NCBI GenBank assembly: GCA_963843795.1
Contig: CAWJLW010000004.1
Location: forward strand, 62,001 to 100,350
Origin: an uncultured bacterium
Lineage (GTDB): Bacteria; Armatimonadota; Abditibacteriia; Abditibacteriales; Abditibacteriaceae
Length of the DNA stretch: 38,350 bases
Direction: 5' to 3'
Shown here: positions 4,553-37,986 of the stretch, one piece after another
How the letters are laid out: every line of letters starts with the position of its first letter
Numbering within the stretch: the stretch's first letter is position 1
The notes under the pieces: model-generated
Told to the model about the DNA's origin: nothing
The model's database searches: none
What the model saw: the letters and a program-made list of their open reading frames with translations, nothing else
Position numbers and translations under genes: made by a program

Positions 4553-5215
4553 TTATTGCGGCAGCAATTGCAACAGCCGTGGCGCGCGTGGCGGAAACAC
4601 CATGCCCAGACCGCTTTGAGTGTCCTGGCCCGGGGAGTCAGCATCGCGCAGCGCCACCATCGACTTCTCGCCGTTGCGATCCGAAAAGGTCAGCGTGTCA
4701 AACGTCATCGACAGCGACTCGAACGGCTTTTGCCCGATCCGGTGCGCGCATGAACCTTTGGCCACATACGCCAGCGTGAGGTGAGGCGCGTAAGAAGAAA
4801 AGGTTTCGCGATAAGGCAAATCTTGTGAGAGCAGAGCGTGCGCGGCGTGGAGTTTGGCCCCGTGCACGCGCACGACCAGCACATCATAGTCGGGATGAGT
4901 GTGAAACAGGTGCAGCGCGCCCAGTCGCACCCGAATTGCCCCGAAATGGCCCATCACCCGCGCGACACTCGCACTGTCATCGACCAGCAGACCATATTTG
5001 ACCGTGATGTGCGGATCGGTTTCGATGCCGTTATCGCGCAAGTACTGGGCGGCCACATGATTGCGCGTCCAATCGAGCACGGTTTGCGCCGCTTGCGCGG
5101 GCAAGTCGAGCTGTGTGGAGCACGATTCGTATTGGTAAGCTGTGAGCGCTTTGGCAATGCCTGTCGATACAACCACTTTCAATTGTTTCATGGTCCCCGC
5201 CCCTTCCAGTTCCAT
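4553..5215 (-). CDS. 2H phosphoesterase (2'-5' RNA ligase / Acb1-like superfamily)
   Basis: Two HxT motifs about 75 aa apart: PHITVKYG and YAPHLTLAYV. Confidence 0.8.
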   Translation of the reverse strand: MELEGAGTMKQLKVVVSTGIAKALTAYQYESCSTQLDLPAQAAQTVLDWTRNHVAAQYLRDNGIETDPHITVKYGLLVDDSASVARVMGHFGAIRVRLGALHLFHTHPDYDVLVVRVHGAKLHAAHALLSQDLPYRETFSSYAPHLTLAYVAKGSCAHRIGQKPFESLSMTFDTLTFSDRNGEKSMVALRDADSPGQDTQSGLGMVFPPRAPRLLQLLPQ

Positions 5216-9988: not shown

Positions 9989-10063
9989 CTGAGAAGGCTG
10001 GATTCGAACCAGCATAAATTCGACTTTTGCCGTCGAAGGCTTTACCAATTAAGCTACCTCCCA
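9989..10063 (-). tRNA. tRNA-like element with an abnormal anticodon loop (possible pseudo-tRNA, Cys-like GCA)
   Basis: Cloverleaf read by eye: acceptor TGGGAGG/CTTCTCA, D arm GCTT-AATTGGTA-AAGC, anticodon arm TTCGA-CGGCAAAAG-TCGAA, T arm GCTGG-TTCGAAT-CCAGC. It lacks U33 and has no encoded CCA. Confidence 0.6.
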
Positions 10064-11547: not shown

Positions 11548-14500
11548 TTAGTCCGGGCGCACGACTTTACTCATCCAGTCATCATCGACCACCGAACTCG
11601 CCGTCATCACACCCGCAAAGCGCTTGATTCCCGTCACCGAAGCGTCCACCGCGTCATCTTTATTCGACAGGGGAAACGTCAGCAATTGCCCGAGCCACTG
11701 GCGCGTTAGATAGTCATCAATTGATACCAGTCGCACCGAGCGTCCTTTACAAAAACTCAGCACGCTTTTGGCGTTTGCTTCTTTTTTCAAACCGACTGGT
11801 GCAAAGGGCAGCGGATGAAAGGGCGGTGCCTGCACAACAGTTTGCCACTCGTCCTCGGTCCAGCCGACCGGCGTTTTCCAGTCGAAAGCTTCGGGCTGAT
11901 GACCAGCGCCGAGATGCTTTTGATATTCGATTTCGCGCGCGCGCCGATGCGCGCCCAGACGACGCGAGTATTGCACAACCGCGGTGGCATTTGAAGCGCC
12001 CTCTTCGATGGGCGAACCCTGCAACGCCGCGCCCACGCGCACGCGCCACTCCGCCCAGGTCAGGAGCACTTTTTTCTCGACTTCGGGCACTTCCATCTTC
12101 TCCAGGACCAGCGGCACCAAGTAGACGTAACCGTCCTCGGCCATCGCCACCAGACAGCCCGCCGAGTTGTCGTTTTTGGCTCCGGCTTTGGCGGCTGTAT
12201 CCCAGCACAAATAGGCTTCGATCAAGTTCTGGCCAAAAACGAGGGACTTGTCCCAGAAGGTTTTGCCTTCGGGATCGGGACAGAACATTTCGGCCTTGAA
12301 CATATTGCCCTGCATCGGCGTGGGCCGTTGCTGGTGCTGTCCCACAAAGTCTTCCTGCAACTGTTCTTCGGCTTCATCGAGGGCTTCTTGATTGAAGAAC
12401 TGCGGAAACAACAGCTCGCGCTCGGTCGTGCGCGGATCACGACCATACTGGGCGTATTTTGGATAGTTGACCAGACAGGTTTGAAAGGCGTGCTCCGGCT
12501 CAAAATACGAGGGCAAGCACACATGCTCGTAAGGAATGACCTTGTTTTTTAGAGACGTGCGCCGCTGGATCGTCACAGTTGTGCGCAGTGATCAGATTGC
12601 ACACGAAATCATGGCAGGGTGTTTCGATGTCATATACCGACCCCTCGTAAAAATCGACTTCGATACTCTTGATCTTGACCAGAAGCCGGTTGCCGTCGAT
12701 CTGATTTTGCTGCGCTCGTTTGAAAACAGGGGTTTTCGCTGTTGTTGGATCAATCCAAGGAGCTTCAAATGAGCGCAAACGAAGCTCCCATGAAACGCGT
12801 CCTTTCACATATTGTCCGGCGTTTACACCTGATTGAATCACCGACACGCACGGCTTTTTGCGAACAGCCATCACGGACGCCACGATTCCCAAGCGCAAAA
12901 GCGCGCGCTGAACCCCCGACAGCAAATCCAGAGAAGAAGATGCGATGCGCCAATTACCTTTGGTATCCAAGCAGCCATCGCCGCGCCAATAGCCGATAAT
13001 GAGTTGCTGCAAAAATTCTTTGGGTAGACAAATCGCCCACTCAGGCAGCGACTTATGGTTTGCGCCAACCCCAAACTGCTCCAAGAATTGTGCAATTTGC
13101 CAGGAAGCAAAAGAAACTTGTAATGCTCCCGGGGCCTTGGAGATGCACAAAGGAATTTCGTATTGAGCAAGAATTGATTTCAAGTCCTCGACGAAATCGG
13201 TTTCTTTGTCGGAAAAAGTCAGGCGCACTCGGTCATGCACGCCGCGCCGCCCCTTGCCTAAACACCCTTCAGCCAACCAATAGCCGACCAATCGCCAAAA
13301 ATTGGGATTCGTGACAGCAGAAGCTGTCACGAAGCGCGCGGTGCGACGCGACAAACCATAAGCCGCGACATAATTATCAATCGACTGGCGGTTTTTGAAA
13401 CCGTAAATTTCAGCGATTTCACGACTGCTTTTTCCTTGTCCCAGCCACCGAACTAACTCGTCTTTGGGCACACGTCCCCGAGAGCCGGAAACCCGATGAA
13501 TTTTCTTAGGTGGAGACGAATCTGGCAGAGCGGGCCACAATCGAAGCAACTCAGCGCACGAAGTTTCGCCTTGGGGTAACGGATACACCAATGTATCTCC
13601 GACTTTTAAATCTTTGCCTTCTTTCCAACCCTCTGTGGTCAGCAGACGATGCTCTGGAGTAATACCTAAACTTTCGGAATGTCCAAAAGTTTTGATGTGA
13701 AGCACATCGCCAGAATGATCATGTACCCAGCGATTACGAACCGTTTGCACTCCCGCTGAAGTCAAGACATCATCGCCAACGCAAATTTCATCTGCCCTTA
13801 TCGTTCCCATTGCAGTATTTATTTTACTGCTGGGAAGCAGACAATGCAAGCGCTGCATGATCATCACAATCGCGCCAGTTTGGGGATTGGCCAGACGCGA
13901 AGCAGCGGCTTTACTCACCCAGCGGTTGGCCTCTTCGCGCTTGAGTTCGCTGGTGGCATCCATCACTTGTAAAGCGTCATCGATGGCGACGACATTCCCA
14001 CGAAAGCCAGTCGTCGCGGCCCCAACCGAAACCGCGCGCCGCATCCCGGTTGCCGAATTGGTGTAGAACTGCTTGGCGTTGGTGTCGGTGCGAATCTTCC
14101 AATCGGGCTTGAAGGTGTCCTGATACCACTGGCTCATCACCAGGTCTTTACATTTGCCCGAGTCGCGGATCGCCAGACCCAAACCCGAACTGGCGCACAG
14201 CATGCGCCAGTTCGGCAGATGCAGCCAGACCCACGCGGGCCACATCACCGACACCAGCATCGACTTGGCATGACCAGGCGGGACGTTTATCAAAAGCCGA
14301 CGAATCAAACCTTCGCTAACCGCTTCGAGATGCGCGCAAATGCAGTCGATGTGCCAGTTCCAGGTGAGCGGTGTGCCCGGTTCAAGCTCCTCCCACGCCC
14401 CGCGCACGAAGTCTGTCAGCGAGATGATCGGGTTTTCAAAGGGATTGAATTCGGGCAGGATGCCAGCAGCGGCATCGGCGGCGGCTTTTTCCAGGCGGGC

Positions 14501-14698
14501 TTGCTCAATGCGCTCTTCAGCGCGCATTTGCTCTTCGGCTTCAATTTGCAACAATTTCGATCTGAGGGCACGCGACGATACCACGATGCGGCGCGGCCTC
14601 TGACGCATCTCTAGAGATGTTTCCGGTTTCGTAATGCCGATTTCAGCTTCAGTCGGAGATGAATTGTTCGAGGAGGATTTCAAACCACTCTTTACCAT
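11548..14698 (-). CDS. terL: Terminase large subunit with intein; +1 frameshift at ~12553
   Basis: Walker A INVPPGHAKS, Walker B VAIDD and the IMQRLH motif. The nuclease domain (CWDTAAK...KDDAVDA) is in ORF 11548..12576. Removing one base gives ...AHVLKNKVIPYEHVCLP. Confidence 0.9.
12578..13843 (-). mobile_element. Intein (422 aa) with LAGLIDADG homing endonuclease in terL
   Basis: N-terminal CLLPSS, block B ITPEHRLL, LAGLIDADG motifs LVGYWLAEG and IIGYWRGDG, C-terminal VYDIET...AHN followed by Cys+1. It interrupts QRLH|CDD and is visibly more AT-rich than its flanks. Confidence 0.93.
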
Positions 14699-16558: not shown

Positions 16559-17285
16559 TTGCTGTGAAGGTAGTTGTTGTGAAGGTCGTTGTTGCGGAGC
16601 CGAAGTGGGTGACGAAGTGGGTGATAGTGGACGCGGGTAAAATAGTGGACACGATTCATTCCTTCAATTGCAGGATGAATCTCATTTTGTTGAATGCTGT
16701 GGCAGCTGGCAAACTCAATTGCGGATCGTGAGCAGTTCAAAAGCGAAACGTTAGCGTTGCAGAGCGATTTTTTTTTGCTGGCGCAATTGGCTCACCGAGG
16801 GGCGCAAAACGTGGCGCGCGATCAGGCGCGCGGCCAGAGGCGAAAAATGCTGGGGTTCCACATCGTCCAGAGGCGTGACCAGCTTTTGCGTCGAAGGCTC
16901 GACAGCGCAACGCCAACTGCGCACGACGCACCGCATCATAGGAAACAGAAAGGGCTTGAGCGATCTCACACAAAGTGAACACGCTCTCGCTATCGGGAAA
17001 GCATTTTTGCAACGCGCCCAACTGATCGGCATTGACCGGCATTGGCATTGGTCATGGCGTTGTAGTTTAACAATTGAAAGGCGCACGATTATGCCACATT
17101 CGATCAAAAGCTACCACCCGATTTATCGACGAACCCGTCAAACCACTAAGACATAAAGGCCAATGTTCACCTTGAGATTAAGCTGCACAGAATAAGGATA
17201 CTCTGTAGCATAGACCGGAAAAGTTTACAAAGAACCGCCAAATACCTTGACGGATGACCTCACTTGTACGGATGACCTCAGTTGT

Positions 17286-17300
17286 CTTGTTGTGCCGGTG
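17286..17300 (-). repeat. Truncated attC (R'' only) ending the TA cassette
   Basis: Minus-strand CACCGGCACAACAAG. Its reverse complement GTTGTGCCGGTG matches the cassette start GTTCTGCCGGTG (17914-17925) at 11 of 12 positions. Confidence 0.65.
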
Positions 17301-17317
17301 TAGGTATTTCGCGCTGC

Positions 17318-17662
17318 TCATATCGGAATGTGCGACTGTAAAAGATGAATGACCGCATTGGCAACTTTACGAAACGAATCGTCTTTAAGCTTGCCGATTT
17401 GAGTGACCATCAGACTCTGATTTGCCGTGAAGATTTTGCCTGGACGTGCGTAGCTAGTGAGGTGCAAAGAACCGCTGACAAAATCCTCGTCCTCAATCTG
17501 AACGGCACTTATATCCGAATAGGATTTGCTCGTTAGCTGACACAATATCCAATCGCCGCGACCGGAATCCGCTAGGACGATGGCCGGACGCAATTTAGAA
17601 CTCGATAAATCCGAGAAGGGAAACAAAACAGTGACGACTACGCCTGCTGAAGGTGTGACCAC
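17318..17662 (-). CDS. PemK/MazF family toxin
   Basis: VLFPFSDLSSSKLRPAIVL...ILCQLTS signature. Confidence 0.9.
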   Translation of the reverse strand: MVTPSAGVVVTVLFPFSDLSSSKLRPAIVLADSGRGDWILCQLTSKSYSDISAVQIEDEDFVSGSLHLTSYARPGKIFTANQSLMVTQIGKLKDDSFRKVANAVIHLLQSHIPI

Positions 17663-17853
17663 GCTTCATCCTCCTCAGGCCGATTCCAATCTGCGGCGAG
17701 GGCCACTTCACTCAGTAAGGCTGTTTCCGTTTTGTCTGTTGCCGGTTGCTCCAATATCGTCACAAGAGCGCGACGCGCAGAAGGAAGGTGTACTTCCTCC
17801 AATAGGCTGACACTGCCGTTTTCGTCAATCAAGGCTTCAATTGTTTGTATCAT
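17638..17853 (-). CDS. Antitoxin partner of the PemK/MazF toxin
   Basis: 71 aa, MIQTIEALIDENGSV...LLSEVALAADWNRPEEDEAWSHL. AGGAGG RBS and an extended -10 (TGgTAAAAT) upstream; overlaps the toxin start. Confidence 0.8.
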   Translation of the reverse strand: MIQTIEALIDENGSVSLLEEVHLPSARRALVTILEQPATDKTETALLSEVALAADWNRPEEDEAWSHLQQA

Positions 17854-17918
17854 CGGTGGCCTCCTGCACCATATTTTACCATTTCGGCGTTTTGGTGACA
17901 CGAAAGCCACGCGCACCG

Positions 17919-18014
17919 GCAGAACACAGTATCTCACCCGCCGCCGGAAGCGGAATGAGTGAAGTGAGGAACGAACGAAACGAATGGAGCTGTAGGCGGT
18001 CGGGTGCAGCGCCT
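17919..18014 (-). repeat. attC site (main part), interrupted by IS110; its R'' end lies at 19318-19326
   Basis: With the IS removed, the minus strand reads GCAGTAACAAGGCGCTGCACCCGACCGCC...GGCGGCGGGTGAGATACTGTGTTCTGC, a typical attC fold with extrahelical bases. Confidence 0.8.
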
Positions 18015-18029
18015 CATAGGTTAACTATG

Positions 18030-18200
18030 GCTTGGCATCAGCAACGGGAGAGAGCACGATGCAGCGCCAGAAGCGATCGACCTTCGATTGACTTCGCGAA
18101 CAAGAGGATGCGCCCGTTGCCGGTGACTATTTATCTCGAACAGTCTCTGGAAACCAGCTCTAATCGAAGAACACGCTGAGATTTCGACTGAGTGAGGGAG
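18030..18200 (+). ncRNA. Bridge RNA of the IS110 element (boundaries approximate)
   Basis: Target loop: TGCAGCGCC (18060-68) and AACAAG (18099-104) flank an inner hairpin and are closed by GCAACGGG/CCCGTTGC. Donor loop: ACAGTCTCT (18140-48), identical to the right end at 19309-17, and TGAG (18189-92). Confidence 0.8.
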
Positions 18201-18206
18201 CAGAAT

Positions 18207-19253
18207 ATGGACACCACGTCGCCTCAATTAAGCACCTGCTATTGTCGCACCCGTCGTTACCGCACCTGCCTCTATCTCCGCTGTTCCCATCGGACTTGAT
18301 GTCAGCAAAGACACGCTCGATGTCTGTTTGCTGGTAAGCGGCAAGCGCCATGAAAAACAGTTTGCCAACGAGGCTGCTGGTCATCGCCAGCTTCTGCGTT
18401 GGTCACAAGGCCTGGCCAAGAACCAACCCTGCCACTTTTGTCTCGAAGCCACCGGCCCGTATTCGCAAGAGGTCGCGTTGTTTTTGGTCGAGAAAGAGCA
18501 AAAGGTGAGTGTGATCAATCCGGCTCGCATCCGCTTCTTTGGACTGGCGCAGAATCAGGGCAACAAGACCGACAAAGCCGATGCACGATTGATCGCTCAT
18601 TATTGCCAGATGCAAAGCCCACCGCCGTGGCGTGTTGCTGCACCCGAAGTGCGCTTGTTGCAGGAGATGGTGCGTCGGCTTCATGCACTGAGTGACTTAG
18701 CGGCACAGGAGAAGAATCGTTCTCAAGTGCCCGGGCAAAGCAAAGCTGTTGCGGCCAGCAGCAAACGGGTGGTGGCAGCCTTGGAAAAGGAACTGTTGCG
18801 TTTGAAGCGCGAAGTGCGCGCTCATGTCAAAGCTCACGCGGAGTTAGGGCGCGATGCCAAGCTGTTGCAAAGCATTCCGGGCATCGGCGAGATCACCTCA
18901 TGGGACGTTCTGGCCGAGATGCCGGATGTGACGGAGTTTGACAGCGCCCAAAGTGCAGCGGCTTATGCGGATTGGCTCCACGCGAGCAAAGATCGGGCAG
19001 CAGTGTGAGAAAAGCGACCACGCTATCGAAGCGTGGCAATCGTCGTTTGCGCAAAGCGTTTTACTTCCCTGCGGTGACTGCGATGCAATGGAATCCCCTG
19101 GTCAAAGCGCACTACGAACGAATGAGGGAAAAGGGCAAGCCCAAGATGGTGGCTTTGGCGGCGTGTATGCGAAAGATGTTGATGATCTGCTACGGAGTGC
19201 TCAAACACCAGAAACCTTTCGATCCATCTTGGTCGAACGTAGCCGAAACTTAG
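18207..19253 (+). CDS. IS110 DEDD recombinase/transposase; frameshifts at ~18231 and ~18970
   Basis: IGLDVSK, CLEATG, KTDKADA, SIPGIG, AAYAGLAPREQRSGSS and KRGNRRLRKA; GAGGGAG RBS. Confidence 0.92.
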
Positions 19254-19338
19254 TATAAGAGACAAAATAACAGGCACAAAAAAACGCCAAGGGACACCCC
19301 TTGACGACACAGTCTCTTGTTACTGCGGTTGTTAGAGT

Positions 19339-19617
19339 TTAATGCCGTGTATTGGTCGGCATCGGCTCGATTCCACTCATAATCGCCCTATTGCTAATAC
19401 ATTTCATTAATACCCAATGTTTCGGGAGTAAAACTGCCGGACGCAAATAAAAGAATAAGCAATGGCGAAGAGAGCATAACTGAATCGTTCCACTTATCAG
19501 AGGACTTTGCAAAGAGGTAAATAGAAGCCGTTGCGAATCCAGCCATAAGGCAGATGCAAAAGGATGTTGGAGATCGTATGAAACATTTGTGTGAGTATAC
19601 ACTCTGCGTTTTTTCAT
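19339..19617 (-). CDS. Cassette ORF, hypothetical
   Basis: 92-aa ORF that fills the cassette between two attC sites; its stop is ~12 nt before R''. Confidence 0.4.
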   Translation of the reverse strand: MKKRRVYTHTNVSYDLQHPFASALWLDSQRLLFTSLQSPLISGTIQLCSLRHCLFFYLRPAVLLPKHWVLMKCISNRAIMSGIEPMPTNTRH

Positions 19618-19635
19618 CGCTAACGGACCAAGCCG

Positions 19636-19743
19636 CGCAGCATCGGCCTACTCAACTTTAGCTGCCGCCAACAGCGGCCAGAAATTGAATGGAGCAAGCG
19701 AAGTGAGATATCGCTGTTGGCGGTCAGATAAACGCTTTTTTGC
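19636..19743 (-). repeat. Degenerate attC site
   Basis: Hairpin CTGACCGCCAACAGCG...CGCTGTTGGCGGCAG; a direct-repeat homolog of 19865-19964. Confidence 0.6.
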
Positions 19744-19864
19744 TCTATATTTTTTTGAAGCGTAAGATACATCAGTGTCTAACAAGAGTTGAAGAAGGTG
19801 TAATTGTTTCAAGTTATCGTCGTGGCCAGGTGTGAATTTGACGAATATTAAAGAAAGTATCTGA

Positions 19865-19964
19865 CGCACATCGCTAACTCTACTGTGAAACAGGGCCAGA
19901 AAGTGAATGGAACAAGTGAAGTGAATACCGCTGTTGGCGGTCAGATACAACGCTTTGTTGTGCG
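19865..19964 (-). repeat. attC site (degenerate 3' arm)
   Basis: CGCACAAC-AAAGCGTTGTATCTGACCGCC... The R'' CGCACAAC is the exact complement of the cassette start GTTGTGCG at 20088-20095. Confidence 0.65.
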
Positions 19965-20088
19965 CTGATTAACGTTTGCGGTGAGAATCCGATCGAACTA
20001 TTTGAACGGTGAGTGCGAGCAAGCTTGGCAGTGTGCAAGTACCTGCGCCGCGCAATTTGAACAGAATTACCAAACGAAATTATAGGAC

Positions 20089-20195
20089 GCACAACGCTAA
20101 GTCCCGCCGCTGGAAGCGCCGAGACCGAGAAGGCGAGTGAACGAGCGAAACGGCGGCGCTGTTAGGCGGTCGGGTGCAGCGCCTTGTTCGTGTGG
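20089..20195 (-). repeat. attC site (empty copy of the IS110 target)
   Basis: CCACACGAAC-AAGGCGCTGCACCCGACCGCC...GCGGCGGGACTTAGCGTTGTGC; shares AGGCGGTCGGGTGCAGCGCCT with 17994-18014. Confidence 0.75.
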
Positions 20196-20585
20196 CTGTT
20201 GGAGAGTCGACTTCTGCTCTCGGTTGAGTGCCAAATACAGCAAATGAGCGAACACTACGCTTGTGCCTTCTTGCCGCTAGACTATGAAATGAATTACTAC
20301 GACCTTCAGGCGTAATCTCTCTTATCGGTGTATGTCGACGCCACAATGCAGATGAAATGCTCTAAACTGAGAACCTACCAAGAATAGCAGGCTTTTGATA
20401 GTAATTGAGTTCCTTCACGCGAGTGAATATGCGATGAACATAGCTGACTCTATAAGAACGCGTGACCCAGAACATATGCTCGTATGCACCAATGAAATTG
20501 TCCATACTGCTCGCATTTTACATCAGCTTTCAACTTGTAGGTCTGGTTGTCCGAACTGTTGCGCTCTGAGCCAAGCCGCGAGCCG

Positions 20586-20612
20586 CCACACAACTACTTA
20601 TTATACGTGTTT
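20586..20612 (-). promoter_or_regulatory. attI-like entry site of the array, with an overlapping TATAAT
   Basis: Minus strand AAACACGTATAATAAGTA-GTTGTGTGG. GTTGTGTGG complements the R'' of the first attC apart from one extra base, and no attC hairpin precedes it. Confidence 0.5.
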
Positions 20613-20773
20613 TGCGGCATTTAATATCAAGCCGAAGCGCGAGCAAAAGAACATACATATTATCAGGAAAAATTTTCCTCATAACTCGATAATTAACGTA
20701 TTATTTCAAGACTATAATAGCCTGCGCATGGCTCGCAAAACCTTGAATTTGGCGTCGATGGACGCCTTATTTA

Positions 20774-21776
20774 TCAAATTTCCACATCAATAAAGTTGGC
20801 CGGATTGTTCTTGGCGCGCGAGACGGCTTTGACATACACACCGGTGGTTTCGATGCTCGCGTGCCCCATCGCATCGCGCAAGTGCTCGACTTTGGCTCCA
20901 CCGGCGACCGCTAAGCGTGCCAAAGGTATGGCGCAGCGCATGGCAGCTCACACCAGCCCGCTTCAAGGCGCTTTCGTTGAGATAGCGGTCGATGACCCAG
21001 TTCAAACCGCGACGACTCAAACGCTGTCCCAGCGTTTCGCGGCTGTGCGATAAAAACAAAGCCCCCGACAGCGGCAGACCCGTTTCGAGCTTGGTCGCGC
21101 TGTAATTCTGGATCGCCGCGTAGGTGTCGGGCCGCAGATAAACGCGCCGCATGCGATTGCCTTTGCCGTGCACCGTCAGAAACGCCGCTTCGCCTTCTTC
21201 GTGCGACAAGCTTTCATGATCCAAACGATGGACTTCGATGCGGCGCAGACCGTGCACCGCCATCAAAGCGATCATCGCGCGGTCGCGCGCGCCGCTGGGC
21301 GTGCCCACAGGCACCGCAGCGACCAGCGCGGTCAAACCATGTGTGGTGAGCGCTTTGATTTTCTCTTCGGGCGGCGTCAAGTCTTTGCCACCGCGCACGC
21401 GTTGGGCGGGATTGACTTCGATCAGACCGTGTTTGACTGCCGCTTCGTAAAAGCGGCGCACGATGCTCAAACGCTTGGCGCGTGTGGAAACGCTCTGCCC
21501 GCGCGCTTTCATTTCTTCGCGATAAGCTTCGATATCGCGCCGCTTGGCGAGCTGCGGGTTCACACCGCGCGCCTCGCACCAGCTGCTAAAGGTCGTGACT
21601 TCTTGCAGGTAACTTTGCACCGTGTCATCGGTCGCATCACCATTGGCCACGTCGATCTCCAAGAACTGCGCGAAGGCTTCTTGAATTGTCGTCACCGGCA
21701 CATCCAACCAGTCAAGCGATTCCAACAGCTCCTCTTCGGCAAGTAACTTGCAGCGCCGTTTCGTCAGGTTTTTCAC
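20774..21776 (-). CDS. XerC/D-like tyrosine recombinase; +1 frameshift at ~20914
   Basis: SAM-like N-domain, GLRRIE, GKG and HALRH. After frame correction it continues AMGHASIETTGVY...IDVEI*. There is no IntI-specific insertion between GKG and HxxR. The start overlaps the repA stop. Confidence 0.9.
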
Positions 21777-23203
21777 TGAACATCTTTGGCTTCCTCATGG
21801 CTGGCTCCTTCATGGCTGGCTCCCTCTTCGCTTTGGCTGACTGACTGGCTTTCCAGACTCGCCAGAACTTCTTGCACTTGATCTTCGTATTCGCGCTCAA
21901 CGATCTCCCATAATGTCATTGAAATCGGGCTATCGAGATGATCCAAGCGCTCCCAAAAAATCGACGCCACATCGCGTCGTGCTTCAGTGACCATAACTTC
22001 GCGATCTTCTTCTTCCAACCCCAGATAAACCGCGTGACACGCGCGCGCGATTTGCGCGCGCTCCGACTGAGTTGAAGCGGGTTGATTGGCTACCCCGCTG
22101 GCTAAAACGCTCGTGCTAACGCTGGTATCGGGGCGAATCGTCGATTTTTCGGGAGTGGCTTCTGTGGGCAGTGCGAACTTCTCCGCAGGCGAGGGGAAAA
22201 TGTAAATCACATTTTCGCCACCGGTCCGTGCGGTCTCATATTCGACCGCGCGCAGATAACCGCCTTCGATCAGCTCGGTGTGAGCCGCCGCCAACCGATG
22301 TTTGTAAGTGGACAGATGCGGCTTGGCAGTGAGGGCGAGATACTCCTCGCAGAGCTTGCGAAGGCCAATGCGATAGCGCGGTTTGCCATCGTAGCGCACC
22401 AAATCCAAAAAGCGAAACAAGCGGCGCGCAATCGGCAATTTCAACGAAAAATAAAAGCTCAGCGAGATCGGCTTCAAATTGCCTTCGCGAAAACTTTTCC
22501 ACAGGGTTTCGCTCCACACGAAGCGCGACAAGGGCAGTTCGTTATCGGCACTTTTGCGGCGTCCGGGCTTGGAAACAATTTCAAAAGACTCAATCAAGTG
22601 AAAGCCGGTGTTGATGAATGCACCCGCCGTCGCATCCCAGAACACATTTTTGGACTGAATCGTGATCGCATGCAAGCGATTGAACACTTCTTCCAATCGG
22701 CGATAATCGGCCCGACTGCTCGACCAGCCCAAACGCTTCAAAATATCCAACTGCGTAAAATAAACCTCTTGAGGAAAACCCAGCTCGCGCGACAATTCCA
22801 ACAACACCAAAACCACCGCATCATCGGTTGGTGTCGGCAAGCCCCACTCTTCACTGCCCAGCACCTTCCACGTCGCGACGATAGTTTTTTTGCTGATCGG
22901 ATGACGGCGCTCGCGGGTCTGCGAGATAGTTTTGCCGTGCTGAACCTGATGCGAAAGCAGGGCAATGGGATAGACCGCTAAATTGCGCTCATCACGACTG
23001 ATGCGCTCGATTTCAGCGGCTTCGCCCGTTGCAGTGCTCTCGGGAGAAGCGCCCTCGGGAGAAGTGCTCTCGGTTGCAGTCTCCTCGTGAGCAGCAGCTT
23101 CGGGAGCAGCAGCTTTGGGAGCAGCAGCTTTGGGAGCAGCAGCCTCAGTTGCAGTCCTTTGGGGAGACGTGCCATCGGTAGAAGTTTCTGTTGTCAAATT
23201 CAT
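21773..23203 (-). CDS. repA: Plasmid replication initiator protein (RepA/RPA family)
   Basis: RDERNLAVYPIALL, WGLPTPTDDAV and FYFSLKLPIARRLFRFLD; adjacent to iterons and parAB. Confidence 0.85.
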   Translation of the reverse strand: MNLTTETSTDGTSPQRTATEAAAPKAAAPKAAAPEAAAHEETATESTSPEGASPESTATGEAAEIERISRDERNLAVYPIALLSHQVQHGKTISQTRERRHPISKKTIVATWKVLGSEEWGLPTPTDDAVVLVLLELSRELGFPQEVYFTQLDILKRLGWSSSRADYRRLEEVFNRLHAITIQSKNVFWDATAGAFINTGFHLIESFEIVSKPGRRKSADNELPLSRFVWSETLWKSFREGNLKPISLSFYFSLKLPIARRLFRFLDLVRYDGKPRYRIGLRKLCEEYLALTAKPHLSTYKHRLAAAHTELIEGGYLRAVEYETARTGGENVIYIFPSPAEKFALPTEATPEKSTIRPDTSVSTSVLASGVANQPASTQSERAQIARACHAVYLGLEEEDREVMVTEARRDVASIFWERLDHLDSPISMTLWEIVEREYEDQVQEVLASLESQSVSQSEEGASHEGASHEEAKDVQ

Positions 23204-23249
23204 AAAAAAAGAACCTGGGCCGTGTCGTGATTTTTTTGGGCGCCGCAAG

Positions 23250-23641
23250 TAGTTAAAGTACTTTTTATATAGTTAGTTACAGTACTGTTACCGAAGCCGA
23301 AAAAGGCCGATAGCGCTAAGCGGGCGTGAAAATTTGACGCGGGTATTTTCGTAACTCCCCGAATTGTTTTTCGTAACTCCCCGAATTTCCCCTTGAATTT
23401 TTTCGTAACTCCCCGAATTGTTTTTCGTAACTCCCCGAATTTCGTGCTCAAAAATTTTCGTAACTCCCCGAATTTCGTGCTCACGATTTTCGTAACTCCC
23501 CGAATTTCGCGGAAATTTGAGCGTGCCTGAGGGTCTTTGTCGAGTGAAATCCATAAAATTGTGCGAGAATTCAGATCATCGTCAGTGCATTGCGCAGTCG
23601 TCACAGCCCAAAAATCATGGAAATTCGGGGAGTTACGAAAA
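23250..23641. repeat. Iteron-type replication origin
   Basis: Six direct copies of TTTTCGTAACTCCCCGAATT start at 23346, 23368, 23400, 23422, 23455 and 23487 (spacings 22/32/22/33/32, helically phased). One inverted copy at 23622-23641; AT-rich tract at ~23250-23290. Confidence 0.9.
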
Positions 23642-23754: not shown

Positions 23755-24036
23755 TCATTCACTCTCCAAAGCAGTCTCGATACTGTGTTCGATGCGTATC
23801 AACAGTTCGCTTTCGGTCGCGCGCGCACGGCGAATGCGCTCGATTTCGGTTGCGACGGCTTTGGCATAAGCGGGTGTGATCTGGACATCGTTTTCCAGGG
23901 TTTGGGCGATTTCACTCAGCGCTTCACTGGTATTGTGGCGTTCGATCTCGCGCACCAGGGTTTGCAACGCCGCTGTGGGAAAGACTTCGCTCACTGCGTT
24001 GCTCTCTGCATTTTGGTCTGGTCGCACTGCTTTCAC
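23755..24036 (-). CDS. Hypothetical helical protein downstream of parB
   Basis: 93-aa ORF at the end of the par operon. Confidence 0.5.
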   Translation of the reverse strand: MKAVRPDQNAESNAVSEVFPTAALQTLVREIERHNTSEALSEIAQTLENDVQITPAYAKAVATEIERIRRARATESELLIRIEHSIETALESE

Positions 24037-24057
24037 TGGGCCCGTTAGGGTTTCCCG

Positions 24058-25208
24058 TTAGGAAGCTTTCCCCTTTTTGGCTTCGCCATTTTGCTGGCTT
24101 TGTTGATTCTGCTGTTCCAGACGGCGCGCGTATTCGGTGATCTGATCGCCCGACCAGTTCTTCTCCAACGCGCGTTTGGCCAGAGCGCGCTGATCTTTGG
24201 CGCCGCTCACGCTGGCAATCGCGCGCGCCTGACGCGCGCTGAGCTTGTCCCGGCTGTCCGCGCCAGCGGGCGCGATCTGTTCGATCACATCGGAGGGCAG
24301 CTTGGCGATGTCGATGTAATACATCAGCGTGCGCTTGGACAAGTGCAGACGCTCGCTCACATCCTCCCAGCGCACGCGCGGCTTGCGGCCTGAGGCGTGC
24401 GCGTGCGCGAAAATCGCGGCCATCCACGGCGTGAGCTTGGGAGGATCCTTGAAGTAGCCACTGGACAGCGCGCCCGATTTCTGGCAAGCCTTCGCCACGC
24501 ACCGCGCGCTCGTTTTGCGCATCGACTTGATCGATGGCTTTTTGCATCTGCTCTTTGAGGTTGACCAGAGCCAGACCCACGTCCCCGGGATGGGGATTCT
24601 GGCGTTGCAGGTTTTCGGTGACGGAGATTTCGGCGGCTTCAACATCACTCATGCGACGCTCGATAGCGGGCACGATCTCGTGTCCGGCGTTTTGGGCAGC
24701 GCGCAAGCGGCGATAACCGGCGACCAGCTCGTGAGTTTGAATGCCTTTGGTCTGGGCCAGTGGTCGCACCAGGAGCGGCTCTAAAATGCCGTGCTCTTGC
24801 ACACTGGCGTTGATCTCTTGCTGGGCGCTTTCGTCAAAGATGCTGCGCCCATAAATCTGGTTCAGTTGCAATTGCTCGATATGGAGCCAGATGGCATTTA
24901 AATTCGCCTGCGCGCCATCGCTGCGCACGCGCGCTCCCGAAGCAGTACGCGGTCTGACCCGAAGTCGGGTGACCCGAAGTGGGATGACCCGAAGTGGAGT
25001 GATCTGAAACTGAGTTGCTCGTTACCTCGAATAGGGGAGATGGTGAGGGCGCAGGTGCATCTGCGCCTGCAGTTGATTTCAAACCGACGACTTCTTGAGC
25101 ACGTTGCAGGGCTTGGGCTTGTTCGCCAGTGTTTTGGACGCGGGCACGGCGCGCGCTGATACCATCTTTGATGCGCTGGCTGCGCGATTGGGCGGCTTTA
25201 AGTGTCAT
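24058..25208 (-). CDS. parB: ParB partition protein; frameshifts at ~24935 and ~24470
   Basis: SVQEHGILEPLLVRP, LVAGYRRLRAA, ENLQR and an HTH (WEDVSERLHLSKRTL). The ATG overlaps the parA stop. Confidence 0.85.
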
Positions 25209-25951
25209 GAGAAAATTTCCTCTGCTAAGTTTTGAAAGTCGTCGCGCGCGCCCGCGCACGCGCGCTCCACAACAGTTTTTTGATCCAGTGCCAGTTCGCG
25301 CAGCCTTTCGGTAAAGCGAATTTGCGTGGTCAGCACATCGCTGCCCCAGGTTTGGCGACAAAGCTCGGCGATCTCACGTCCGTGATTGGTATCGCGGTAA
25401 GCGGTCAGCAAGATGCGCACGCGCGGGGCTTCGACTTCGTAAGCATCGCACAACTGAGCGATCCGCTCAGTTGTATCCAGCGCCGTATCAAACGCCATCT
25501 TCTCGCCATTAATGGGAATGATGACCAGCTGCGACGCCAAGACAGAGTTATGGGCCACTGCACCCCAGCCACTGGGCACATCCACAATAGTCGTCGTCTT
25601 TTTTGAGGGTGGCCACATCTTCATGGCACGCCGCAAACGCAGATCGGCACCCACTACAGAAGGCAACAAATGATCGGCATCGACCATGCGCGGATCGCTG
25701 GCGACCAAATGCAGCTGCGGGCGCACCGGTATTGCCGCATCGGTGAGCGAGCAGCCAGCAAACAACACGTCGTGAATAGTGGGCGCACCCGAAAATTCTC
25801 CTTCGACCAGAAAAAAATTGGTCGCCGAATACTGGCCATCAGCATCAATCAACAGCACCTCGCGCTCAGTGCTCGCCAGCGTGGCGGCCAGGTTGACCGC
25901 GCTGATCGTTTTACCAACGCCGCCCTTGGAATTGAGAAAAGAAATCACCAT
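25205..25951 (-). CDS. parA: ParA partition ATPase
   Basis: KGGVGKT deviant Walker A, LLIDADGQ and IVDVP. Confidence 0.93.
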   Translation of the reverse strand: MVISFLNSKGGVGKTISAVNLAATLASTEREVLLIDADGQYSATNFFLVEGEFSGAPTIHDVLFAGCSLTDAAIPVRPQLHLVASDPRMVDADHLLPSVVGADLRLRRAMKMWPPSKKTTTIVDVPSGWGAVAHNSVLASQLVIIPINGEKMAFDTALDTTERIAQLCDAYEVEAPRVRILLTAYRDTNHGREIAELCRQTWGSDVLTTQIRFTERLRELALDQKTVVERACAGARDDFQNLAEEIFS

Positions 25952-36894: not shown

Positions 36895-37986
36895 GCGAGA
36901 TTCAGCGCCAGCAAACCCGTCAGGATTCCATTATCGGGCGTTTCGATGTCGCGGCGTTCGATGGACAGCGCATACGACTCAATGAGCGGCGTTTTGCTGG
37001 CGCTGTTGGTGTTGAAACCCAGAATCGGCAGACCTTCTTGCTGCAAAACTTCGATGTTGGGGTTTCCAATCGAGTTCTCTTCGGCGAGCACGATCTGGCC
37101 GGCCAGCGGTCGTGCATCGCCCGCAAGCGCCCGCGTTGCAAGCTCCAACCCACTGTATTGTAGCGATCCCAATCCACAACACGGCGGGTGTGGATGTCCA
37201 TCACTTTGAGGCTGGTGAAGTCGTTGCTTTTGCCCCAGTCCGCGCTCATTACGAACGTGCCGATGTAAGGCTCGCGCTTTTGGGCTTTGGAAACCAGCGC
37301 CACACCGCGAAAGACTTCGCCGCCATCTTCCAAAAACTCCGCGCACCACTCTTGACGATAGGTGCGCTCGGAAACCTTTTCTTTGACGCGATCAAAGGCG
37401 GCTTGGATGTTGGGATTGGGATTGCTGCGACTGGTGGCCGTCCAGCAGTGATAGCGCAGACCACCTTCGGCAGCGTGTTTCTTGGCACTTTGAAACTCTT
37501 TCCAAAACCAGTTGCGGCCTTTGGGTGTGGAAATCAGGACGCAATCGCCGTCGTTGTCTGCGAGAGTGGGCTGAATACAATCCGTCCACGCCTCTTCGGA
37601 GATCATCGCCGCTTCATCGACGATGATGAGATGGAAGTTTTCACCGCGAATCGAGTCCGGGTTGTCCATCGAATACATCGCCAGAAAGCCACCGTTGGGA
37701 AATTCAACGGTGCGTTCCGAGCGATTGATACGACACAGACCGGCTTTGCGCAGCGGGCCTAAAACGCGTTCGATCAAGCGCCACAGCGGGCGCCCGTTTG
37801 TAGGTGGGAACTACCCACGCGACGCGCAGGCCGTTGTAGGCGCTGGGAATCGCGACGCATTGGCCCAGAACGGATTTGCCCCATCGACGGCCCATCGCCA
37901 GTACCTTGATCTTGGTGGCGTATGCTAATCACTTCCCATATCGGGTCGCGCCGGAGCTGGGGCAATTCGAGCGCTATTTTTGGCAA
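36879..37986 (-). pseudogene. terL: Second terminase large subunit (Terminase_6 type), frameshifted and C-terminally truncated
   Basis: GRRWGKS, IRGENFHLIIVDEAA, LISTPKGRNWFW and SADWGKSNDFT are spread over several frames. Confidence 0.85.

Follow-up and report, generated by a model that had tools for sequence, protein, structure and literature searches.

A cassette array on a phage-plasmid-like contig of Abditibacteriaceae is probably the attI end of an integron whose integrase gene was cut back to a stub

We analyzed a 38,350-nucleotide stretch of DNA (the window) that makes up the last 38 kb of a 100,350-bp contig, C4 (CAWJLW010000004.1), from an uncultured bacterium of the Abditibacteriaceae in the phylum Armatimonadota (assembly GCA_963843795.1; 11 contigs, 92% complete). 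Next to a gene for a Xer-like tyrosine recombinase, the window carries an array of integron-type cassettes, which we conclude, with a probability of a little under 0.9, to be the attI end of an ordinary integron of that family whose integrase gene, intI, was cut back to a stub of 14 codons and whose cassettes were likely moved by a canonical integron integrase, IntI. The array is a group of clustered attC sites without an integron integrase (CALIN) that retains an attI site and an intI stub, beside a likely bystander recombinase. An earlier, sequence-only reading of the window had offered two models, a reverse-type integron run by the Xer-like enzyme and an array built by a host IntI acting in trans at the plasmid resolution region; it had included neither the intI stub (20728-20769, plus strand), nor the IS110 insertion sequence (IS) in the fourth attC, nor a frameshift in the recombinase gene near 20914. 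Positions are those of the window unless another contig coordinate is named.

We searched the window with a covariance model, R1, built from 18 well-trimmed attC sites that had been picked from 32 in the canonical complete integrons of relatives and that included no window sequence. There were two strong matches, at 17924-18021 (64.4 bits) and 20089-20192 (45.2 bits), and two weaker ones, at 19646-19743 (23.5 bits) and 19846-19963 (21.1 bits), all four on one strand, and the next-best match in the window reached only 11.4 bits. Two strong and two weak sites within 2.3 kb compare with the two or more attC within a few kb that define a CALIN, and the four bound cassettes in the same orientation, as in a complete integron. 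That a model trained on canonical integrons only still matches the window sites speaks for a canonical origin. The sequence-only reading had counted five attC sites; the fifth, at about 17289-17295, has no R1 match and is an R'' half only, followed by a stretch that resembles an IS110 end. It had also held that the cassette boundaries agree with each other, which proved to be so in part. Over 12 positions, start and end were complementary at 11 in cassette 5 and at 8 in cassette 2, moderately at 7 in cassette 4, and at only 4 in cassette 3; cassette 1 gave 4 of 12 ungapped and, by eye, 9 of 9 if one base is bulged. Because mismatched pairs of starts and ends also reach 8 of 12, the agreement is partly generic. 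The bottom strands of the four attC sites did not fold clearly better than shuffled sequences (z of -0.39, -0.99, -1.97 and +0.14), and an Rfam scan returned nothing in the array region. A strict home-made scan for attC structure found none of the array sites of the window and only 8 attC-like sites in canonical arrays, since bulged bases and 6-nt spacers defeat its pattern, and was dropped. The cassette array is real and partly decayed, with two good attC sites, two degenerate ones and one half.

The array, on the minus strand, begins at its first cassette boundary, G/TT 20594, 180 nt past the stop of the co-oriented recombinase gene (20774), as the sequence-only reading had placed it. The head between these two points is a canonical integron platform with intI divergent as usual and cut back to a stub. 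The attI region (20592..20712, minus strand) holds an inverted repeat at 20660-20684, an L box GTATAAT at 20606-20600, a 5-nt spacer and G/TT 20594; the run from L box to GTT (20606-20592) stands 134 nt from the ATG of the stub, and its order of L box, spacer and GTT is that of canonical attI sites in the family. Inverted repeats of a similar kind lie upstream of canonical attI sites, for example in L035. On the plus strand, at 20728..20769, about 14 codons translate as MARKTLNLASMDAL and end at the recombinase's stop codon; we read them as the 5' stub of a deleted canonical intI. The stub MARKTLNLASMDA compares with the start of a full IntI, MALKNLDFASMDAFL, in the canonical divergent orientation, and none of 300 shuffles was as good. 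Among 120 IntI proteins was P0133, which begins MALKNLDFASMDAFLDACQR and to whose residue 1 the stub aligns with a score of 40, against maxima of 28 for 300 shuffles and 25 for 119 Xer-like proteins. An IntI of the same genus begins MAIEERTFGSMLEFLE and lies downstream of the same TATAAT box. In the window this box (20713..20718, plus strand) is 9 nt ahead of the stub ATG, a distance like that before intI in loci L042 and L038, and is likely the integrase promoter's -10 box; a sigma-70 scan of the head gave 1 site against 0.9 expected. The stub codons at 20751-20766 also contain a perfect 6-bp inverted repeat that is terminator-like in a scan of the plus strand.

The same head recurs on the contig. 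A second array, at about 46900-51620 of C4 (L061), has five R1 matches of 51-97 bits, and its head is 71% identical to that of the window over 198 nt. Its stub, MASKTLDFASMDAF, scores 57 against IntI, with a shuffle maximum of 34 (0 of 300 as good) and a maximum of 34 for Xer-like proteins. The gene upstream of it is a 515-amino-acid open reading frame (ORF) that is not a recombinase, so the same head exists without the Xer-like gene. This array also has two tandem attI-like sites; one of its attC sites holds an IS110 that looks intact, and the last one holds a truncated IS110 end. On the host chromosome, contig C6, an attI-like site with one decayed cassette follows a co-oriented gene at 2099000-2099510, and a separate lone attC of 42 bits lies at 1239074-1239183 (L245 and L246, respectively).

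We propose that the integron platform arrived tail-to-tail with the Xer-like gene and that intI would then have been deleted back to that gene's stop, with the promoter-attI head retained. A deletion reaching to the neighbor's stop would account for a co-oriented gene about 180 nt upstream of the array. Cassettes were likely inserted and removed by canonical IntI, at first the integron's own and later probably one supplied by a host in trans.

We also looked at heads without intI in other loci. Nine were chosen from 112 attC-motif loci by an attI motif or by likeness to canonical heads; three of the nine come from records labelled as other phyla, and ORFs were sought on one strand only. Upstream of each head, at 80-337 nt, is the stop of a co-oriented gene that has a Pfam match, a different gene in each case. 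Recognizable intI stubs remain in L080 and L105, that of L105 being longer and decayed, and L119, L142 and L113 retain little or none. L219 and L220, both at a phosphomannomutase locus, share 88.8% identity over the gene and the head as far as G/TT, after which the first cassettes differ. L196 and L197 are a looser case of the same kind. Where first cassettes differ behind one shared head that has no intI, we infer the action of IntI in trans. L198 and L231 are also among these orthologous intI-less heads, which lie behind phosphomannomutase-type and NAD(P)H-hydrate dehydratase genes. The 27-nt attC motif occurs, mostly as lone sites, in records labelled cyanobacteria, Chloroflexota and others (L077-L188), which suggests cassette sharing across soil-crust phyla, or misbinning.

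These heads bear on an alternative that differs from our explanation only in how the head arrived, namely that IntI excised a promoter-attI-cassette unit through a secondary GWT site within intI's 5' end, and seeded satellite arrays elsewhere. Both C4 stubs and that of L080 end within a few codons of each other, by eye, the junctions of the window, the second array and L080 have GAT or GTT at them or close by, and heads lie behind many unrelated genes at which most relatives have no integron. However, GWT is common, which makes the junction match weak, and the longer, decayed stub of L105 together with the near-absence of stubs in L119, L142 and L113 is the pattern expected of progressive deletion. 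In one family genome, G025, a complete integron lies 2.3 kb downstream of the dehydratase gene and is oriented like the orphan head L119 behind the same gene. We consider seeding of this kind improbable, though it fares best among the alternatives.

The recombinase gene (20774..21776, minus strand; PF00589, PF02899) is frameshifted near 20914 as assembled, which places the enzyme's last catalytic residues in another frame. Test genes were also split across frames, 3 of 25 on the chromosome and both of those on C4, so an assembly error is plausible here; one public read run (share 0.05) had coverage that reached neither the head nor the frameshift. As the sequence-only reading had stated, the enzyme has no IntI-specific insertion and so is not the enzyme of a complete integron: from the KG loop to just past the HxxRH motif it has 82 residues, against 115-119 in 12 of 12 IntI proteins. 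It reached 28.8 bits with the IntI model TIGR02249, whose cut-off is 265, and matched XerC and XerD models below their cut-offs. In the phylogeny that the same reading had called for, the recombinase fell in a clade of its own (support 100/100), separate from IntI, and was thus not the co-oriented true IntI of a reverse integron. Catalytic motifs are conserved across this clade. A tyrosine recombinase next to the canonical intI of L038 belongs to another clade, at about 30% identity. The canonical integron L057 (1749-4325) has a second tyrosine recombinase 89 nt downstream of intI; the attC sites of this integron number six and are nearly identical, and most belong to a 342-bp cassette repeated in tandem.

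Relatives of the recombinase are present in 18 of 26 family genomes, and those that carry names are from Abditibacteriaceae. We fetched loci for 24 of 31 matches, reaching up to about 1.4 kb downstream (three loci were shorter), and found no attC and no head after the recombinase stop in any of them. Across 40 stretches (272 kb) around relatives, a set that takes in five longer re-fetches and ten viral loci, nine of these distant, R1 found no attC and nothing better than an E value of 0.16. What lies downstream of these genes is varied and of non-cassette type (DnaB, TPR-PIN, DUF4365, HNH), and by eye a conserved ABC transporter gene follows in 9 of 24 loci. In 4 of the 6 longer loci, the gene immediately upstream of the recombinase encodes RepA. 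An alignment-based viral scan gave ten loci, only one above 50% identity and none with attC; viral scans with the single recombinase or the attC motif had no match, and a scan of metagenomes with the single recombinase yielded just one locus, of 3.3 kb. The recombinase is likely a bystander to the array. Its gene neighborhood best fits a replicon-maintenance or integration enzyme of the parA-parB-repA module, one that would act in dimer resolution or integration and would leave attC hairpins alone.

Across the family, attC numbers track IntI and not the Xer-like gene. R1 matched attC sites in 24 of 26 relatives, and IntI was found above cut-off in 13 of 26 genomes, the same genus included. The median number of attC matches listed was 19 in the 13 genomes with IntI and 2 in the 13 without, as against 6 in the 18 genomes with the Xer-like gene and 16 in the 8 without, where the genomes compared are kin and not independent and the per-genome counts are of matches listed. 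Five family genomes with 10-79 attC matches listed have no Xer-like match, and G010 has two Xer-like copies and no attC match. Neither IntI nor the Xer-like gene was found in G009, a single-contig family genome whose 22 attC matches are spread over several clusters.

These results leave very little room for the model in which the integrase at work in a non-canonical reverse integron is the Xer-like recombinase, or in which this enzyme took charge of the array once intI had gone. The gene is adjacent and co-oriented, with its stop 180 nt from the crossover, its clade keeps the catalytic motifs, and the host has no detectable IntI. But the enzyme lacks the IntI insertion, the head is that of a canonical platform with a divergent intI stub, the twin array on C4 has no such gene, attC is missing from all 40 stretches around relatives, and both the five attC-bearing genomes without the gene and G010 count against it. 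Cury et al. 2016 (PMC4889954) likewise report tyrosine recombinases without the IntI domain beside attC sites, and judged them not to be IntI. The other model, in which a host IntI assembled the array at the plasmid resolution region after recruiting it de novo as an attG or attI-like site, is the least probable of all: the head does have inverted repeats and sits just after the Xer-like gene, and attG insertion at GWT sites is established (10.1101/2022.09.11.507474), but in the 24 relatives' loci the head is never part of the replicon module, inverted repeats like these lie upstream of canonical attI sites as well, and a head with an intI stub and promoter box that recurs at 51.5 kb of C4 is more than the plain GWT of an attG site. 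What stands of that model is the need of a CALIN for IntI in trans, although at an inherited attI platform and with no IntI found in the host.

Several results weigh against our explanation of the array as the attI end of an ordinary integron. No IntI above cut-off and no remnant of the IntI insertion was found in the host assembly (92% complete), where tblastn with four family IntI proteins returned only Xer-type genes and the stub of the second array; the surroundings are in this respect those of a CALIN, with no functional intI nearby. Compared as DNA with 13 canonical intI 5' ends, the stub of the window was clearly supported by one (L038, 0 of 500 shuffles) and marginally by another (L042, 27 of 500). 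The 19-nt attI core scores 7.3 bits in a weight matrix and is outranked by at least 6 of the 1182 GTT sites in the window. A comparison of related elements, as suggested in the sequence-only reading, turned up none whose first cassette at 20594 is different; the head as a DNA query had no relative among the 26 family genomes, and viral scans with the head motif or with P0133 had no match. The closest relatives of the recombinase, P0002 and P0003 (70-76% identical), lie outside the set of contexts examined. Lastly, intact intI within 1.5 kb occurred in 0 of 45 loci of the phosphomannomutase and dehydratase genes.

An IS110-family element (18013..19315, plus strand; PF01548, PF02371) lies in the fourth attC between R'' and L'', with an AG/CT core, and its transposase gene is frameshifted near 18968 as assembled. 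Its left end is the same as in an attC of the canonical integron L057, and its right end the same as in the second array; with a DEDD transposase and a fixed attC position, it has the features of attC-targeting IS110 elements. In addition, the R'-side spacer of attC4 (17932-17926) consists of the end of a second type of IS110, which is truncated at G/TT 17925; in 7 other loci the letters after GGTGAG (the same or a one-base variant) run on as the IS end. The IS end stops at the G/TT that opens cassette 5, suggesting that it served as an R' box for an IntI-type crossover. Because cassette 5 starts at a G/TT inside an IS end, crossover of the IntI type would have gone on after the IS110 insertion. 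In the present host the array is likely dormant or decaying, since no IntI was found and three of the five attC sites are degenerate or halved.

Evenly balanced in our judgement is a wider proposal, that of a distributed integron in which one IntI per genome would serve live satellite attI platforms behind the stops of unrelated chromosomal and phage-plasmid genes, so that a phage-plasmid with two docks would gain cassettes from each IntI-bearing host without an enzyme of its own.

The five cassettes measure 499, 222, 227, 1717 (with the IS) and about 636 bp, all on the minus strand. Cassette 1 with attC1 (20089..20593) has no long ORF on the array strand. Cassettes 2 (19865..20094) and 3 (19636..19871), each with a degenerate attC, are apparently geneless, and their attC sites are 89% alike over 74 nt. 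Cassette 4 has a 92-amino-acid ORF (19339..19617) of no known family, with no Pfam or PHROG match and no homolog at E<=0.001, and the remainder of attC4 lies at 17919..18012. Cassette 5 (17318..17924) has a small ORF that overlaps a PemK/MazF-type toxin gene (PF02452, E 4.8e-8) and, from its position, likely encodes the antitoxin. It is 87% identical over 373 nt to a cassette of the family array L088, and a PLSDB search did not find this toxin-antitoxin unit. The array ends with the R'' half of attC5 and the IS110-end-like stretch (17250..17300), whose likeness to an IS was judged by eye.

C4 has matches to major head, portal, terminase and tail genes and also encodes RepA, ParA and ParB. Virion genes and genes for plasmid replication and partition thus stand on one contig, as in a phage-plasmid, and from this gene content we take C4 to be a phage-plasmid-like element, in line with the sequence-only reading; no exact overlap of its termini was found. 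The plasmid replication initiator RepA (21773..23248, minus strand; PF10134, E 3.9e-13) belongs to the parA-parB-repA-recombinase module, in which profile matches also placed a ParB_N domain gene (23924-24928) and a ParA-type ATPase gene (25205-25951). Several direct repeats at 23290-23560 upstream of repA, seen as repeated peptides, are likely iterons. There are two different terminase large-subunit genes on C4, at 11548-14698 and 36920-37777; the former is split over ORFs and has an intein with a LAGLIDADG domain inside. The phage region also has a tRNA gene (9989-10063, minus strand), and at 4553-5215 (minus strand) lies a gene for a 2H-phosphodiesterase or RNA ligase-family protein with a weak match to Acb1 (anti-CBASS), under the cut-off at E 0.0005.

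The closest known likeness is to phage CALINs described by Qi et al. 2023 (PMC9892861), one of which, in the Shewanella prophage M16-3, has its own attI; the same authors report that phage attC sites recombine with IntI1. The M16-3 array and the present one are integrase-less cassette arrays headed by attI within a phage genome; unlike M16-3, which also has a complete integron, the present element has two stub-bearing heads, neither its contig nor the host assembly yielded an IntI, its host belongs to the Armatimonadota, and it also carries RepA and ParAB. About half of CALINs are reported from genomes without IntI, with intI lost by deletion (Cury et al. 2016, PMC4889954; a Xanthomonas survey, 10.1101/2025.06.18.660453), and the Xanthomonas survey reports deleted intI genes and CALINs that can be mobilized in trans. 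Surveys with the intI_Cterm and PF00589 profiles report intI pseudogenes near 15 of 279 CALINs (PMC4889954; 10.1101/2025.06.18.660453). The loss is the same here, but a 14-codon N-terminal stub would escape the profile test. In the inverted, or reverse, integrons of Treponema the enzymes are reported to be true IntI (PMC4889954), unlike the co-oriented enzyme here, which has no IntI domain, and the intI remnant here is in the normal divergent orientation. Elements of the IS1111-attC group within IS110 are described as inserting at a fixed attC position (PMC11187229). In contrast, there are two insertion positions in the present attC family, on the R''/L'' side and the L'/R' side, one IS end was apparently reused as an R' crossover, and the present IS110 has its non-coding region upstream of the transposase gene. 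The attG sites considered above are as defined by Loot et al. (10.1101/2022.09.11.507474). Our literature searches found no relevant paper on integrons of Armatimonadota or Abditibacterium, or on orphan or multiple attI sites.

A new integron enzyme lacking the IntI domain would have been of importance; the evidence removes that claim. What these data add is a phylum with rich integrons. They also show that, from a very short intI stub together with attI, one can tell where a CALIN came from even if profile searches would class it as free of integrase. First cassettes that differ behind orthologous intI-less heads provide natural evidence that cassettes move in trans, and phage-plasmids are possible carriers.

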